From: Gemmatimonadota bacterium
GTDB taxonomy: Bacteria > Gemmatimonadota > Gemmatimonadetes > Longimicrobiales > Gaopeijiaceae
Length of the DNA: 64,000 nt
Direction: 5' to 3'
Assembly: GCA_034521595.1 (NCBI GenBank)
Contig: JAXHMG010000002.1
Span: forward strand, 32,001 to 96,000
Positions 14,538-40,566 of this stretch are shown piece after piece. Each line of letters begins with the position of its first letter. Position 1 is the stretch's first letter. The notes beneath the pieces were generated by a model. It did no database searches. It was not told the DNA's origin and was given only the letters and a program-made list of their open reading frames with translations. A program made the translations under genes and the position numbers.

Positions 14538-15791
14538 ATGGCTCGTCCCTCCCGGCGCTTCCGCGGAGAGCCGCCCCTACTCGCCTACGGCGCGTCGTTC
14601 GCGCTCTTCTCGAGCTTCGGTCAGACCTTCCTCATCTCGCTCTTCGTTCCTTCCTTCGTGAGCACGTTCGATCTCAGTGACGGAGGGTTCGGCGGACTGT
14701 ATTCGGCGGCCACGCTGATCAGTGCCGCGCTCCTTCCCTGGGCGGGACGCCGATTGGACTACGTGCGGCTCAACCGCTTCAGCCTGGCGGTCGTCGCCCT
14801 GATGACGGCCTCGGCCCTCATGCTGGCTCTCGCCCCGAACGCTGCGGTGCTAGGGATCGCTCTCGTCGGGCTCCGGCTCGCGGGACAGGGGCTGTCCGGC
14901 CACACGACCCACACGGTCATGGCCCGGTACGCGGGGGCCCGACGGGGGTGGGCGCTGAGCGTCGCCGGCCTCGGCTTCCCCGCCGGCGAAGCCGTTCTAC
15001 CGTACCTGACCACCGTCGCCCTGCTCGGGCTCGGCTGGCGGGTCACCTGGCTGGTCTTCGCGGCGCTGGCCTTCGTCGTCTTCGCGCCGCTCCTCGTGGC
15101 CGTGCTCCACCGCGCGGAGATCGAGCTCGACCCGAAGAAGCTCGACGAGCACGCGGACGAGGGCCCGTCGCCCGGGAAGCGCGAGTTCGACGCCCGTGCA
15201 GGCGATTGGACCCGGGCGGCCGTCCTCCGGGACCGCCGGTTCTTCCACGCGCTGCCCTCGGCGCTCCTCCCGAGCTTCTGGCTCACCGGCATCTTCCTCT
15301 ACCAGACCCGAATCGCGGAGATGAAGGGCTGGCCGATCACGCTCATGGCCACCGCCTTCGTGGGCTTCGCCGCGAGCCGAATCGCGTTCTCGTTGTTGGC
15401 CGGACGCGTGGTGGACAGGCTCACCGCGCGCCGCGTCTACCCTTTTCTGCTCCTCCCGATGGCCGCCGCCCTCGCGCTCCCCCTGGCGGTCGACGCCCGG
15501 TGGGGCGCCTTCGGGCTGATGATCGGGCTCGGGGTGACGATGGGGATGGGCACGCCGGTCCGGTCGTCGCTCTGGGCCGAGCTCTACGGCGTCCGGCACC
15601 TGGGCGCCATCAAGGCGATGATCACCTCGTTCAGCGTGCTCGCCGCCGCCGGCAGCCCCGTGCTCATCGGGCTCGCCCTGGACGCCGACGTCGCTCTCGA
15701 CCACATCCTGTGGACGGGCGTCGCCACCACGCTCGCGGGATCCGCAGTGGCTTGGGGGCTCATGGTGGATTCGAACGACCCCGCGATATGA
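14538..15791 (+). CDS. MFS transporter
   Basis: About 12 hydrophobic segments, SSFGQTFLISLF, GRRLD and GRVVDRL loops. Confidence 0.88.
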   Translation: MARPSRRFRGEPPLLAYGASFALFSSFGQTFLISLFVPSFVSTFDLSDGGFGGLYSAATLISAALLPWAGRRLDYVRLNRFSLAVVALMTASALMLALAPNAAVLGIALVGLRLAGQGLSGHTTHTVMARYAGARRGWALSVAGLGFPAGEAVLPYLTTVALLGLGWRVTWLVFAALAFVVFAPLLVAVLHRAEIELDPKKLDEHADEGPSPGKREFDARAGDWTRAAVLRDRRFFHALPSALLPSFWLTGIFLYQTRIAEMKGWPITLMATAFVGFAASRIAFSLLAGRVVDRLTARRVYPFLLLPMAAALALPLAVDARWGAFGLMIGLGVTMGMGTPVRSSLWAELYGVRHLGAIKAMITSFSVLAAAGSPVLIGLALDADVALDHILWTGVATTLAGSAVAWGLMVDSNDPAI

Positions 15792-15890
15792 CGACGACTC
15801 GACCTCCACGCGTCGTGTTCCGGCATGGAGGGGCCCGGCGAGACGTGTGAGCCTCCGATGGATCCGAACACCTTCCCCAAGGAGGCCATC

Positions 15891-16085
15891 ATGTTCGCCA
15901 AGTTTTCCCCCGCAGCGCTGCTCGCAGTTGCCACGCTGGTGTTTCTGATCGCACCGGATCGACCGGTGGCGGCATCCGAGTGCGGAGAGCTCCACGGCAT
16001 GCTCTGCGAGTCGGTGGAGGAGTGCACCGGCTTCTGGTTCTGGAAGTCGTGCACCACGTCCAACAGCTATTGGGGGGGGTTGTAG
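15891..16085 (+). CDS. Secreted four-cysteine small peptide 1 (64 aa)
   Basis: AAGGAGG RBS at 15879-15885; signal peptide ending VAA; mature SECGELHGMLCESVEECTGFWFWKSCTTSNSYWGGL; paralog of the next ORF. Confidence 0.85.
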   Translation: MFAKFSPAALLAVATLVFLIAPDRPVAASECGELHGMLCESVEECTGFWFWKSCTTSNSYWGGL

Positions 16086-16115
16086 ACGGACCGCCCCTAC
16101 ATCGACCGGAGCGCT

Positions 16116-16150
16116 CGAGGGGCCGGGGCCGGCGTGGCTCCGGCCCCTCG
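16116..16150 (+). terminator. GC-rich stem-loop after peptide 1 (terminator or mRNA stabiliser)
   Basis: CGAGGGGCCGGGGCC-GGCGT-GGCTCCGGCCCCTCG, 15-bp stem with one G-U; no U-tract. Confidence 0.5.
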
Positions 16151-16283
16151 TCACGTGCTCGCCACGCGCCGCCCGAACCCGTCCCATTCCGACATGGGTC
16201 AGCCCTCGGCAAGGCACGAGGCTACATGACCGGCTGGTGGGCCGGACGCCGTCACGGGACATCCCCAACTCACGGAGGTAGCC

Positions 16284-16478
16284 ATGTTCAAGATGCTCTC
16301 ACTCCCCACTCTGCTCCTGGCTGGAGCACTCGCTGTCGTATCCGCTCCGGGCACCGAGGTCGCCGCTTCCGAGTGCGGCGCCGACGGCCGCGAAAAATGC
16401 TGGGAGAACGAATCGTGCATTTACCTCCTCTTCTACAGTCAGTGCACGACGAAGACGAAGTACTGGGCAGGACTCTGA
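16284..16478 (+). CDS. Secreted four-cysteine small peptide 2 (64 aa)
   Basis: GGAGG RBS; signal peptide ending VAA; mature SECGADGREKCWENESCIYLLFYSQCTTKTKYWAGL. Confidence 0.85.
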   Translation: MFKMLSLPTLLLAGALAVVSAPGTEVAASECGADGREKCWENESCIYLLFYSQCTTKTKYWAGL

Positions 16479-16613
16479 CCCCGTACTGATCCGACGGCGG
16501 TGAGCACCACGCTCACCCGTCATGATGTTCGCGCCCGCGACGGTCCGGCCCACTACGTCGCTACCACGGCTCACGGACACGTCCGGGCCTCGGCCCGGGC
16601 ACGGAGGAAACAG

Positions 16614-17132
16614 ATGCATCCCTTTTCATACTCGACGATCACCCTGGCAATGGCCGGCATCCTCTTGGGTGTGGCTGGGTGGCGCTGGCACGAAGCCGCG
16701 GTCGTGAGACCCGACCACTTCCCCGGCGTCGACCCTCCTGCCGCCATCCTCGTCGTTCAGGAACGCGATTGTCCCGACCGACGCGCGGCCATGGCGGTGT
16801 GGCTGGACGACCTGCACGCGTCCGACGCCGGCGCGTCCCTCCCCGTCTACCTCGGGGTGCTGGGCGACGACCCCGGCCTCCTCGACCCACGAACGGACGA
16901 GCTACCCCGGCTGCCCAGCGCCGAAGCGTCGACCGCGGCGCGCGCCCTGCTTCGCGCGGGACTCTCGGGCACGCCGGCGCTCATCGTCCTCGACTCGGAA
17001 GGCCACGTCCTCCTGGCGGACACCTTCGCAACCACCGGACCCGGCGCCAGGTTGGCGCTCGCAGCCGATCTACTACCGGCGGTTCGTCCTTTCACGGGCC
17101 CCGCCGACGTCCTTCAGCCCGATGGAGGGTGA
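16614..17132 (+). CDS. Membrane-anchored thioredoxin-fold protein with degenerate CxxC (CPDR)
   Basis: GGAGG RBS; N-terminal TM; ILVVQERDCPDR and GTPALIVLDSEGHV (cis-Pro region). Confidence 0.62.
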   Translation: MHPFSYSTITLAMAGILLGVAGWRWHEAAVVRPDHFPGVDPPAAILVVQERDCPDRRAAMAVWLDDLHASDAGASLPVYLGVLGDDPGLLDPRTDELPRLPSAEASTAARALLRAGLSGTPALIVLDSEGHVLLADTFATTGPGARLALAADLLPAVRPFTGPADVLQPDGG

Positions 17133-17135
17133 CCC

Positions 17136-18590
17136 ATGGAACAGCTCCCGTTGCTGCTGAACATCGTCGGCGTGGGCCTCTGGCTCGGTTTCACGGTGGA
17201 TTTCCTGCGGCGCCCTCCACTCCAACCCCGGTCGTGGGGTCGGAACGTGAGGCGCGGTGCGTGGGTGGGGCTCGCCATGCTCTTTTTGGCTGCCGGGGGG
17301 TGGGGTCCCGAGATGTCGCATTCGACGACGAGCGACTTTTCCCGCGACCCCGACGTGGGAACCCCGGTTGAGACGACGAGCAGCTTGCTCCGCACCCCGT
17401 TCGCGATCTACGAAAGCACCGCGGTGATGGACAGAGAGGGACGCACGATCCGTCAGGATCGCATGGTCACCAGGCAGCTCCCGTTGGCTCTGCTGATCTT
17501 CCTCGCGGGTGCGTTCTGGCTCCGGCGTCGCCGCGAGCTCTCGGAGAAACGGAGTCCCACGAGCAGAGGGGCGACGGATGCTCTGGCCTTGGTGGGAATC
17601 CTGTCCGCCACGCTCACCGGCGCCGGATGCGGCGACCCCGCGCCCTGGGACGGGGACCGTCCGGAACGCAAGATCGTGGACGTGACGTGGGATACGCTGG
17701 CTCACGTACGTTCCGGAGTGAACGACTCGCTGCTGTTCTCGGCGAGCGGCGTGGCCGCGGACGAGGAGGGGTTCTGGGTGGGCGACCTGTACGGCGACCG
17801 CGTGGCTCGCTTCGACTGGGAAGGACGGCTGCTGCGGTACGTAGGCGACTCCGGCCGGGGACCGGGCGAGATTGGACGCGTCCACGAGATCGACGTGGAC
17901 GGCGAGGGCGTGCTCTGGATCCTGGACCCCGAGAACACCCGGATCACGGGCTTCGATCAGAGCGGCGCCCTCGTCGACGAAGTGCCGTTTCGGGGTTTGG
18001 ATGCCTCCCCCGGATCGTTCGCGGTGAGTCGCGATGGGAGAACATTCATGTCCATGCTCCCTTCCGACCGGCTCGAGCCGATCCTTATCCACCGTGACGG
18101 GCGCATCGAACGGGGCACGCAGATCCCCGTGCCCGATGCGAACGGCGCATTCGGCCTGGCCCTGCAAGGTCGGGTCGCCCGCCACGACCACGGCTGGCTG
18201 TTCGCGTTCACCTCCGGAGACGGCATCTTCCGCATGCGCGGCCTCGAGACCGTCGGGCCGCGGCTCCGGTACCCGGAGGCCATCCCGTTCCCGGGCATCA
18301 CCCGATCCGTGCAGCGGGACGGACGTCGCACCTCGACGACGACCCGGCTCGCGGAGCGCAATCCGGCCGCGGCCGCCATCTCCACCCGAGGGTCGGAGCT
18401 GCTCGTCGTCTTTCACGGGGAAAGCCCGAACGCCGGACGCCTCCTCGACCGCTACGACCTCGAGCGGGGCCGTTACCTCGACACGGTCCTCCTACCCGTG
18501 TCGGGATACGTCGCTGCATGGGACGACCGGCTCGTCGTGGCCCGGACCAACCCACGACCCGAGCTCCTCGTTCTCCGACAGGTCGAGTGA
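17136..18590 (+). CDS. 6-bladed (NHL-like) beta-propeller with N-terminal multi-TM domain and internal lipobox
   Basis: Three N-terminal hydrophobic helices, LTGAGC at Cys165, blades VAADEEGFWVGD, GDSGRGPGEI, LWILDPENTRITGFD. Confidence 0.75.
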   Translation: MEQLPLLLNIVGVGLWLGFTVDFLRRPPLQPRSWGRNVRRGAWVGLAMLFLAAGGWGPEMSHSTTSDFSRDPDVGTPVETTSSLLRTPFAIYESTAVMDREGRTIRQDRMVTRQLPLALLIFLAGAFWLRRRRELSEKRSPTSRGATDALALVGILSATLTGAGCGDPAPWDGDRPERKIVDVTWDTLAHVRSGVNDSLLFSASGVAADEEGFWVGDLYGDRVARFDWEGRLLRYVGDSGRGPGEIGRVHEIDVDGEGVLWILDPENTRITGFDQSGALVDEVPFRGLDASPGSFAVSRDGRTFMSMLPSDRLEPILIHRDGRIERGTQIPVPDANGAFGLALQGRVARHDHGWLFAFTSGDGIFRMRGLETVGPRLRYPEAIPFPGITRSVQRDGRRTSTTTRLAERNPAAAAISTRGSELLVVFHGESPNAGRLLDRYDLERGRYLDTVLLPVSGYVAAWDDRLVVARTNPRPELLVLRQVE

Positions 18591-38522: not shown

Positions 38523-39467
38523 ATGTTCGCACGAAAAACGAGTCGAGCGGCCCTCGCCGCCGCGATCATGGCGATCGGATTCACGGCTTGCGACGACGGA
38601 GGGTTGGGGCCGAGCGGGGACGCCTCGGTTCGGGTGCTCCTGACGGACGCGCCGGTCGATTACGTGAAGACCGCCCGGGTCGACATCGGCGCGGTCGAGA
38701 TCGTGCCGGCCGACGGGGACGGCGATCCGGTTCTCCTCTCCGAAGACGGCACGGACGGGTTCGTGAACCTGCTCGACCTGCAGAACGCGGTCACGCACAC
38801 CCTCGCCGACATCGACATCGAAGCGGGCGACTACAGCCAGCTCCGCCTCATCGTGGAAGCCGCGACCGTCGAGCTGAAGGAAGGCTACGCCTTCAAGGGC
38901 GGCTCGACCGAGCAGGAGCTCTTCGTGCCCAGCGGCGCGCAGACGGGGATCAAGCTCAACCTCTCGCCCGCGGACGGTGGAGAGAACGGTGACGAGAACG
39001 GGGACGAGGAAGACGGCCCCGTGACGATCGCCGACGGTGAGACCGTGCTCGTGGTCGACTTCGACGTGAGCAGGAGCTTCGTCATCCAGGGGAATCCCGA
39101 GACGCCGGCCGGCATCAACGGGATGCTCTTCAAGCCGACGCTCCGCGTGACCGTGCTGACCTCCGCGGGAAGCATCTCGGGAACGGTCACCACGGAGTTG
39201 GAGGACGTCTCGGTGGAAGGTCTCACCGTCGCCGCGGTTCCCGAGGACGCAGGCGATGCCGAGGAGTTCCAGACCCTCGAAGGAACGGCCGTCACGAACG
39301 CCGACGGCGAGTACACCATCCACTTCCTGACCCCGGGGACCTACACCGTGAGCGTCGAGGGTCTCGACGAAGGGCTGACGACGGACCCGGAGAGTGCCAC
39401 CGTGGACCTCGAAGCGGGTGAAGAGGCCGCCGAGGTCGACTTCGAGATCGTCGAGAGCGGCTCGTAG
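38523..39467 (+). CDS. DUF4382 lipoprotein 1
   Basis: AAGGAG RBS; lipobox FTAC; VLLTDAP, NLLDLQN, YSQLRLIV, VPSGAQTGIKL, VDFDVSRSF; C-terminal carboxypeptidase-regulatory-like domain. Confidence 0.88.
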   Translation: MFARKTSRAALAAAIMAIGFTACDDGGLGPSGDASVRVLLTDAPVDYVKTARVDIGAVEIVPADGDGDPVLLSEDGTDGFVNLLDLQNAVTHTLADIDIEAGDYSQLRLIVEAATVELKEGYAFKGGSTEQELFVPSGAQTGIKLNLSPADGGENGDENGDEEDGPVTIADGETVLVVDFDVSRSFVIQGNPETPAGINGMLFKPTLRVTVLTSAGSISGTVTTELEDVSVEGLTVAAVPEDAGDAEEFQTLEGTAVTNADGEYTIHFLTPGTYTVSVEGLDEGLTTDPESATVDLEAGEEAAEVDFEIVESGS

Positions 39468-39508
39468 GGCCGACCCGATCCGACAACGCCCTCCCGAGGG
39501 GGGGACCG

Positions 39509-39544
39509 ACGCCCCGTCCGCGAGTCCGCTCGCGGGCGGGGCGT
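39509..39544 (+). terminator. Stem-loop after DUF4382 gene 1
   Basis: ACGCCCCGTCCGCGAG-TCCG-CTCGCGGGCGGGGCGT, 16-bp stem. Confidence 0.55.
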
Positions 39545-39566
39545 TCGCGTGGCCGGGCAGAACCGC

Positions 39567-39596
39567 GATGTGACCGAATCGGCACCGTCCGAGTGT
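39567..39596 (+). promoter_or_regulatory. Putative ECF promoter, copy 2
   Basis: GATGTGACC-N15-GAGTGT upstream of DUF4382 gene 2 and the sigma gene. Confidence 0.75.
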
Positions 39597-39654
39597 GCAC
39601 GTCGAACCCCCCAAACGAAATCAAGTCTGCTCCACCACAATCAGGAGACATGAG

Positions 39655-40566
39655 ATGTTTCGAACCAAGTTCACCAAGCTGCTCGGCGGCGCCCTCCTTC
39701 TCGGAATGGGCCTGGCCGCGTGCGACGACAGCACCGGCGTCGACGGCGACGCCTCGATGCGTGTGCTGCTGACGGACGCGCCCTCGGACTACGTCGACTC
39801 GGCCTGGGTCGACATCGGCGCCGTAGAGCTGATCCCCGCGGGTGACGGAGGTCCGGTGACCCTCACCGCCGACGGAACCGACGGCTTCGTCGATCTGCTC
39901 GACCTGCAGGGCACGGCCACCCAGTTGCTCGCCGACGCGGACGTCCCGACGGGCGACTACAACCAGCTCCGGCTGATCGTGGACGAGGCCCGCGTGGCGC
40001 TTGCCGACGGGTACGAGTTCCAGGACGGCTCGACCTCGAAGAGCCTGTTCGTGCCGAGCGGCGCGCAGACGGGCATCAAGCTCAACCTCGCCGGAAGCGG
40101 TGGCGAGGAGGAGAGCGGACCGGTGACGATCGCCGCGGGCGAGACCGTGCTGGTCCTCGACTTCGACGTGAACCAGAGCTTCGTGATCCAGGGTGACCCC
40201 GAAGCCGAGGCCGGTATCCGGGACATGCTCTTCACCCCGACCATCAGCGTGGTCGCCGAGAACGTCGCGGCCAGCGTGTCCGGCACGGTGAGCACGAATC
40301 TCTCCGACACCTCGGTCGAAGGGCTGGTCGTGACCGCCGAGCCCACGGGCGAGGGCTCGCTCGAGGAGTACCAGAGCCAGACGGGCACAGCCGTCACTGA
40401 AGAAGACGGCACGTACACGATCTACTTCCTGGTTCCGGGGTCCTACGAAGTGTCGGTCGACGCGGGCGAGGGTCTGTCCGCCGATCCGACGGAGACCGCC
40501 GTGGATCTCGACGACGGTGAGGATGAGACCGGTGTCGACTTCGAGTTGGTCGAGAGCGGTTCGTAG
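39655..40566 (+). CDS. DUF4382 lipoprotein 2 (tandem paralog)
   Basis: AGGAGA RBS; lipobox LAAC; same motifs as paralog 1; both end DFE[IL]VESGS. Confidence 0.88.
   Translation: MFRTKFTKLLGGALLLGMGLAACDDSTGVDGDASMRVLLTDAPSDYVDSAWVDIGAVELIPAGDGGPVTLTADGTDGFVDLLDLQGTATQLLADADVPTGDYNQLRLIVDEARVALADGYEFQDGSTSKSLFVPSGAQTGIKLNLAGSGGEEESGPVTIAAGETVLVLDFDVNQSFVIQGDPEAEAGIRDMLFTPTISVVAENVAASVSGTVSTNLSDTSVEGLVVTAEPTGEGSLEEYQSQTGTAVTEEDGTYTIYFLVPGSYEVSVDAGEGLSADPTETAVDLDDGEDETGVDFELVESGS

Follow-up and report, generated by a model that had tools for sequence, protein, structure and literature searches.

A 64,000-nucleotide stretch of a Gemmatimonadota bacterium genome (contig JAXHMG010000002.1, positions 32,001 to 96,000 of the forward strand; hereafter the window) carries a compact cassette of same-strand genes. 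They encode two 64-residue peptide precursors, a thioredoxin-fold protein, and a fusion of a small membrane domain to a six-bladed beta-propeller (Table 1). We conclude that the cassette is real and conserved, that it joins four parts around the peptides, and that it has apparently not been described. In the window, none of the four parts reaches a Pfam or NCBIfam cut-off, and we found no published description of the cassette in the literature surveyed, which was mostly open-access, with preprints taken without their supplements.

Table 1. Features of the cassette and its immediate surroundings in the window.
Feature	Position	Strand	Remarks
Peptide 1 precursor, 64 aa	15891..16085	+	28-aa signal (putative cleavage at V-A-A) and 36-aa mature part; C-x7-C-x5-C-x8-C; W/F-rich hairpin tip
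Peptide 2 precursor, 64 aa	16284..16478	+	Relatives carry the same type directly 5' of the thioredoxin-fold gene; predicted hairpin strands 38-48 and 51-61
TlpA/DsbE-like thioredoxin-fold protein, 172 aa	16614..17132	+	Hydrophobic helix at the N-terminus, either anchor or cleavable signal; active site D52-C53-P-D-R; putative cis-Pro position at T120-P121
N-terminal membrane domain	17136..17546	+	Three helices around a beta-sheet; matches no Pfam family over cut-off
Basic linker and internal lipoprotein-type signal	17547..17630	+	Ends G-A-G-C165, non-canonical at -3; helix 149-160
Six-bladed NHL/DUF5128-like beta-propeller	17631..18590	+	Inserted beta-hairpin, residues 388-405; no conserved His or Cys
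15-bp inverted repeat 3' of peptide 1	16116..16150	+	No U-run; not among the terminator-like sites
MFS (major facilitator superfamily) gene	14538-15791		Upstream of the cassette

The two peptide open reading frames (ORFs) are as the initial annotation had described them. Each has a GGAGG ribosome-binding site 5-6 nt upstream of its ATG, the two align without gaps with 26 of 64 residues identical (tblastn E 2e-8), and the cysteines fall at positions 31, 39, 45 and 54 in both. A six-frame motif filter applied to the 3.49-Mb genome returned these two ORFs as its sole output, and one relative, P0014, is 64% identical to peptide 1. Because nonsynonymous divergence (dN) is lower than synonymous divergence (dS) in 8/8 peptide pairs (e.g. 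0.05 against 0.44 and 0.03 against 0.25), both ORFs are, on their substitution pattern, real genes; between close pairs, dN of the mature peptide is 0.01-0.04. The description of the peptides as twins did not hold: peptide 1 is nearer to a relative's first peptide (47%) than to peptide 2 (41%). A recent tandem duplication was rejected on a dS of 1.46 between the two and on each being closer to the matching peptide of the relative genome G004, an argument made weak by a mostly unresolved peptide tree with 2 of 22 branches supported. We looked for a sigma-70-like promoter and found none. The inverted repeat after peptide 1 is possibly an mRNA-stabilising stem.

A profile search of 1.84 billion representatives placed the peptides in a family of 136 members (50% identity level, E ≤ 0.001), of which 86 have the exact 7-5-8 cysteine spacing and one, P0057, is a repeat artefact. 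Our alignment also has 136 rows, made up of 125 of these representatives and 11 others; the remaining 11 representatives (fusions, over-long or partial calls, and P0057) were left out. Across the rows the four cysteines are invariant, G32 is conserved in 80%, T56 in 74% and Y60 in 93%, and the loop positions between the cysteines vary, as first noted. The tail CTTxxxYWxGL is present in both window peptides (CTTSNSYWGGL and CTTKTKYWAGL) but its WxGL end is not a feature of the family, with G63 at 18% and L64 at 11%. Relatives of peptide 2 occur in all 6 same-genus genomes and in 13 of 100 relatives at E ≤ 1e-4, and the peptide profile matches 50 of 401 genomes of the class, a count that includes a few false matches.

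No characterised family was found that would account for these peptides. No Pfam or NCBIfam family is common to the members, the 10 representatives looked up are unnamed or called "hypothetical protein," an Atlas lookup assigned no family (best 0.79), an uninformative fold search with the peptide gave nothing above Z 2.6, and a word-indexed homolog search returned one relative only. AlphaFold2 predicts a signal helix followed by a long beta-hairpin with a predicted local distance difference test score (pLDDT) of 72.5. In the predicted strand register C45 faces C54, with C31-C39 left over as a loop; from this we infer one disulfide closing that loop and one crossing the strands between C45 and C54. 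A two-cysteine relative (L180) that retains C-x7-C alone fits the first of these pairs, and six-cysteine relatives have extra cysteine pairs in the hairpin. At least two aromatic residues occupy the hairpin tip or loop in 105 of 136 sequences. As a separate observation, a six-cysteine subfamily (C-G-x6-C..C..C..CC..YYY) with a divergent propeller was seen at L113, L114, L116, L157, L162, L163 and L184, several of which have the order peptide, propeller, thioredoxin.

The gene behind peptide 2 encodes a 172-aa protein that the initial annotation called a membrane-anchored, thioredoxin-fold folding helper. The fold was borne out: a Pfam/NCBIfam scan gave no match over cut-off, the Pfam matches all being sub-threshold, and the Atlas model matches TlpA/DsbE-type redoxins with template-modelling (TM) scores of 0.52-0.57. 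The hydrophobic N-terminus is compatible with either an anchor or a cleaved signal. Across 52 rows C53 is invariant, and D52, T120 and P121 are conserved in at least 90%. The thioredoxin fold of TlpA/DsbE is present, as is a putative cis-Pro loop. The CxxC motif of those proteins is not: the active site is D-C-x-x-X, with a single cysteine, and CxxC is found in none of 53 + 40 sites. According to the Eug1p study, a one-cysteine thioredoxin site forms no internal disulfide and so does not oxidise, but is suited to shuffling (PMC2195995). On its monothiol site the protein therefore cannot be an oxidase, and helps, if it does, by shuffling or holding disulfides. The genome encodes DsbB and three DsbA-like genes, whose products could supply the oxidation of the peptides; VKOR was searched for in the genome and not found.

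Three bases after the thioredoxin-fold gene, a 484-aa ORF (17136-18590, + strand) begins. It was initially read as a six-bladed propeller, and the propeller is there at residues 184-483, but the gene also carries a separate 137-aa N-terminal membrane domain that had been missed. The model of the whole protein (pLDDT 86) packs helices 4-25, 36-54 and 117-137 around a beta-sheet, leaving short cytoplasmic loops, and its strand list gives six blades. NHL domains are the best fold matches of the propeller (Foldseek E 2e-13), with Z 26.8 and a root-mean-square deviation of 2.8 over 260 aligned residues against the Brat NHL domain. The window propeller thus has the features of a six-bladed NHL type, and 18 of 49 family propellers match PF01436. 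For DUF5128 (PF17170), the window protein scores 18.5-19.7 bits against a cut-off of 22.9, and 26 of the 49 match at E ≤ 0.01. Of 46 family propellers, 44 have a lipobox-like motif ahead of them.

The membrane domain is a fourth component of the cassette, found elsewhere free or fused to a peptide. Among the fetched loci, 12 have it in one chain with the propeller, as the window does, and 16 have it free; four database proteins join it to a complete peptide precursor (E 1e-14 to 1e-23). Two metagenome scans, one for the membrane-domain-peptide fusions and one for peptide 1, confirmed no locus, so these four fusions are known only as database proteins from short contigs. In genome G182, two contigs that overlap by 55 bases give the order peptide, thioredoxin, propeller, membrane domain, peptide, and the stop of the membrane domain overlaps the start of the next peptide. 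We found no conserved cysteine, no Pfam family and no MauE match in the domain.

The linkage of these genes was examined from both sides. From the peptide side, we fetched 70 loci from Gemmatimonadota relatives and dropped six: two in the wrong frame (L079, L081), two without a local match (L082, L083), one with another type of peptide (L124) and one that is the second locus of the window's own genome (L084). Within 3.5 kb and on the same strand, the remaining 64 loci have the thioredoxin-fold gene in 52, a full propeller in 48, both in 47 and the membrane domain in 28, with at least two peptides in 18 and a variable gene order. From the thioredoxin side, a reverse sample comprised all 40 new loci matched by the thioredoxin profile at E ≤ 2.4e-12 in 251 genomes of the order. 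A same-strand propeller match accompanies 36 of them (28 at full length), 18 have a peptide-profile match at E ≤ 0.01, and a filter that selects small secreted ORFs with an even number of cysteines lets 27 through, against 52 of 2000 random windows. Seen from either side, the cassette is conserved. Six relatives retrieved with a propeller alignment carry Gemmatimonadota names, Longimicrobiales in one case; every named relative is a metagenome-assembled genome.

Outside the cassette, flanking genes vary by lineage (216 neighbours in 116 clusters), and no ATP-binding cassette (ABC)/C39 exporter, kinase, regulator or cofactor-forming enzyme recurs among them. The MFS gene does lie upstream, as had been noted, but it is not part of the system as an exporter or otherwise: homologues occur in 2 of 110 loci, both of one genus. 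Several loci depart from the usual layout. L070, L072 and L101 have peptide, thioredoxin and membrane domain with no adjacent propeller, the next gene belonging to a recurring family of ~900 aa where whole; the same family flanks the orphan peptide of L038. A propeller gene (L074:7681-8629, G354) and a thioredoxin gene (L115:9715-10240, G474) are each split over two frames, by a frameshift or an assembly error. At the two rejected wrong-frame loci (G333:C1:1.20-1.21 Mb and 1.89 Mb), a unit repeats every ~3.65 kb, and its off-frame, Cys/Arg-rich translation had falsely matched the peptide profile.

Several known systems resemble parts of this cassette. In Bacteroidota neighbourhoods, NVEALA peptides (PF14055) stand beside DUF5128 (PF17170) and TlpA proteins, so that a small exported cysteine peptide, a DUF5128-like propeller and a thioredoxin-fold protein lie side by side as they do here. 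The link to NVEALA drawn in the initial annotation is sound as an architectural likeness only. The window peptides have no Pfam match, PF14055 is absent from the 25 of 33 families listed for the 136 members, and none was found in the genome at E ≤ 1. The cassette also differs by its monothiol thioredoxin, its additional membrane domain and its phylum.

In the methylamine dehydrogenase (mau) system, MauA is a small disulfide-rich subunit and MauB a propeller. The four-part layout is again shared: a small disulfide-rich exported protein, a propeller, a dedicated thioredoxin-fold protein and a membrane protein. There, according to a preprint, MauD (CXXC) and MauE (CXC) mature the disulfide-rich subunit (bioRxiv 10.64898/2026.03.05.709764), whereas the cassette thioredoxin has one cysteine, the membrane domain shows none of the marks of MauE, and no cofactor enzyme is adjacent. 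The one PF07291 (MauE) match of the genome lies away from the cassette. Bufferins share Sec-exported precursors with conserved cysteines but reportedly require an MNIO (DUF692) enzyme with a DUF2063 partner (PMC11626156); PF05114 was not found in the 93% complete genome, and no MNIO is adjacent to the cassette. Eug1p, a monothiol relative of protein disulfide isomerase with a CXXS site, offers a precedent for a one-cysteine site fit for shuffling but not for carrying oxidising equivalents (PMC2195995); it is a eukaryotic generalist, while the cassette protein has a single, TlpA-like domain and goes with particular peptide genes.

The closest parallel in terms of fold is with NHLRC2 (animals and some bacteria) and SOQ1 (plants), in which a thioredoxin-like domain is fused to a six-bladed NHL propeller. 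The NHLRC2 study proposes a ligand cleft between the two domains and reports no conserved operon for the bacterial proteins (PMC6107167). Both proteins are among the fold matches of our propeller (Z 19.3 and 20.4). In the cassette, the thioredoxin and NHL parts are separate genes in all loci read, the site is D-C-x-x-X and not CC(I/V)NC, the products are exported, and peptide genes are adjacent. By analogy, the cassette may work like a split NHLRC2/SOQ1.

Based on these observations, we propose that the four genes encode a periplasmic platform, tethered to the membrane, on which small beta-hairpin peptides with disulfide staples are folded and held, a reading to which we give an even chance. 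The precursor would be exported by Sec and cut after V-A-A (A28), and the general DsbA/DsbB pathway, whose genes are present, would oxidise its four cysteines. The NHL propeller may then bind the hairpin by its conserved base, comprising the C-G-x6-C loop and the T-x-Y-x-Y/W strand. Judging from its motif, the one-cysteine thioredoxin could attack mispaired disulfides through C53 and form a mixed disulfide, from which the peptide's own thiol would release it. The outcome of shuffling would be the C31-C39 and C45-C54 pairs, with the thioredoxin acting as shuffler or holdase. The three-helix membrane domain, tied to the others by gene linkage, would anchor or organise the unit. The finished, mostly acidic hairpin would show its variable aromatic tip and most likely find its target, a membrane or a protein, within the envelope of the cell that makes it. 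What sequence and models support of the original proposal is Sec-type export, disulfide bonds in the 36-aa peptides, a helper with a thioredoxin fold and a propeller that may bind the peptides.

A complex prediction bears on the propeller step. We modelled the propeller, the thioredoxin, the membrane domain and mature peptide 2 together; as a four-chain job with custom alignments, this is unlike the pairs on which the tool was calibrated. The peptide scored 0.57 (runs 0.57, 0.68 and 0.48), compared with 0.00 and 0.00 for unrelated partners and 0.11, the best control, when the propeller was replaced. Among the calibration pairs, 116 of the 157 solved ones and 2 of the 215 mismatched ones reached the mark, and scores of 0.60 or below comprised only 18 solved pairs and both mismatches. 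The runs agree in at least 64% of contacts, and partner pLDDT is at least 69. The result gives weak support to the propeller as the partner needed for peptide docking.

A number of points weigh against the platform. Neither full-length partner is found in 11 of the 64 peptide loci, three of which have a divergent propeller, one the membrane domain alone and one a cassette continuing across a contig overlap. On the thioredoxin side, 13 of the 40 loci fail the peptide filter. The genomes are kin, and the linkage counts are not independent; the membrane domain, moreover, is in only 28 of the 64. The pass of the complex model is weak, comes with no contacts given and falls outside the tool's calibration, and the predicted disulfide pairing depends on strand register and not on coordinates. 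It is important to note that the platform is a reading of sequence and models.

A bolder version, which we think rather doubtful, holds that a split thioredoxin/NHL-propeller platform loads interchangeable two-, four- or six-cysteine hairpins by their conserved base, and that a dedicated membrane domain helps to display or assemble them, which would make the cassette the prototype of an undescribed envelope system. If it were true, disulfide-stapled binders found in nature would gain a new class, and the NHLRC2/SOQ1 cleft a bacterial model for its putative ligand.

It is also conceivable, if unlikely, that the peptide is a permanent small subunit of a stable envelope complex. It would sit on the propeller, perhaps with a lasting disulfide linking it to the thioredoxin cysteine, in a beta-rich assembly with the propeller's inserted hairpin and the sheet of the membrane domain, like the small disulfide-rich subunit of methylamine dehydrogenase. 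The fusions of the membrane domain to propeller or peptide, the overlapping stop and start in G182, purifying selection on the peptides and, weakly, the dependence of the model score on the propeller all fit such a complex. Opposed to it, none of the four cysteines would be free for a permanent tether once both disulfides have formed, peptide copy number varies and orphan copies occur, and the neighbours include no recurring cofactor-forming enzyme.

The readings offered at the outset, with the peptide as an antimicrobial and the propeller as its immunity protein, or as a signal and its receptor, are disfavoured because the peptides are mostly acidic and conserved and because no exporter or kinase recurs. 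A stapled hairpin with an aromatic tip may be likened to thanatin or protegrin, and an antimicrobial or inhibitor hairpin that mimics a beta-strand to block a competitor's envelope machine would suit the variable loops and patchy distribution. We consider it quite improbable: the net positive charge of cationic beta-hairpin antimicrobial peptides is not found in the family, where the mature charge has a median of -2, is neutral or acidic in 118 of 136 and reaches +3 or more in only 2; the low dN of the mature part and the lack of a recurring ABC/C39 exporter next to the cassette also count against it. Signalling by the peptide, received by the propeller and transduced by the membrane domain, we hold to be very unlikely. 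In its favour are loops that vary on a constant frame, a lipoprotein propeller adjoining a membrane domain, and an ECF (extracytoplasmic function)-sigma-like gene recognised by eye two genes away in 4 loci. Against it, the cytoplasmic loops of the membrane domain are all short, the 216 neighbours show no recurring kinase or regulator, and none is adjacent in the window. Least plausible of all is a new class of ribosomally synthesised and post-translationally modified peptides (RiPPs) in which the propeller is a lyase, amidating or hydrolytic enzyme like PAL or Vgb: fold-level matches do include PAL, Vgb lyase and lactonases, and conservation reaches 90% or more at several Asp, Glu, Arg and Tyr positions, but no His or Cys is conserved across 77 propellers, the best matches are non-enzymatic NHL domains, most of the conserved residues fit what we take to be the NHL structural pattern, and the peptides lack a terminal Gly.

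The cassette is of interest in several respects. There is no RiPP enzyme in the cassette, as the initial annotation had observed; with no tailoring enzyme and no part that scores above the Pfam or NCBIfam thresholds, it would probably escape tools for cluster mining. The family supplies more than 100 natural disulfide-stapled hairpin sequences, together with a naturally one-cysteine periplasmic thioredoxin family whose candidate substrate adjoins it. The cassette could also serve as a simple test bed for cooperation between thioredoxin and NHL propeller, which is at issue in the human disease protein NHLRC2 as well.

Further loci were seen in the same genome. In an unrelated second cassette (L084, C3:961600-973300), a 69-aa exported peptide has eight cysteines, starts at C3:968357 on the minus strand and lies behind a one-cysteine, membrane-anchored protein of 173 aa (L-S-C-E-D-L, thioredoxin-like by eye); about seven propeller genes surround them. 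An isolated 63-aa ORF at C3:3011330-3011521 (+) has a signal-like N-terminus, a ribosome-binding site and four cysteines, and lies in AT-richer DNA with no called neighbours for ~2.8 kb. More DUF5128-like propeller genes occur at C1:7191-26113, C3:2144980 and C3:2812027, four of them clustered on C1. Elsewhere in the window, at 38523-40566, a tandem pair of lipoprotein-like paralogues (314 and 303 aa) lies upstream of what appears by eye to be an ECF-sigma-like gene.

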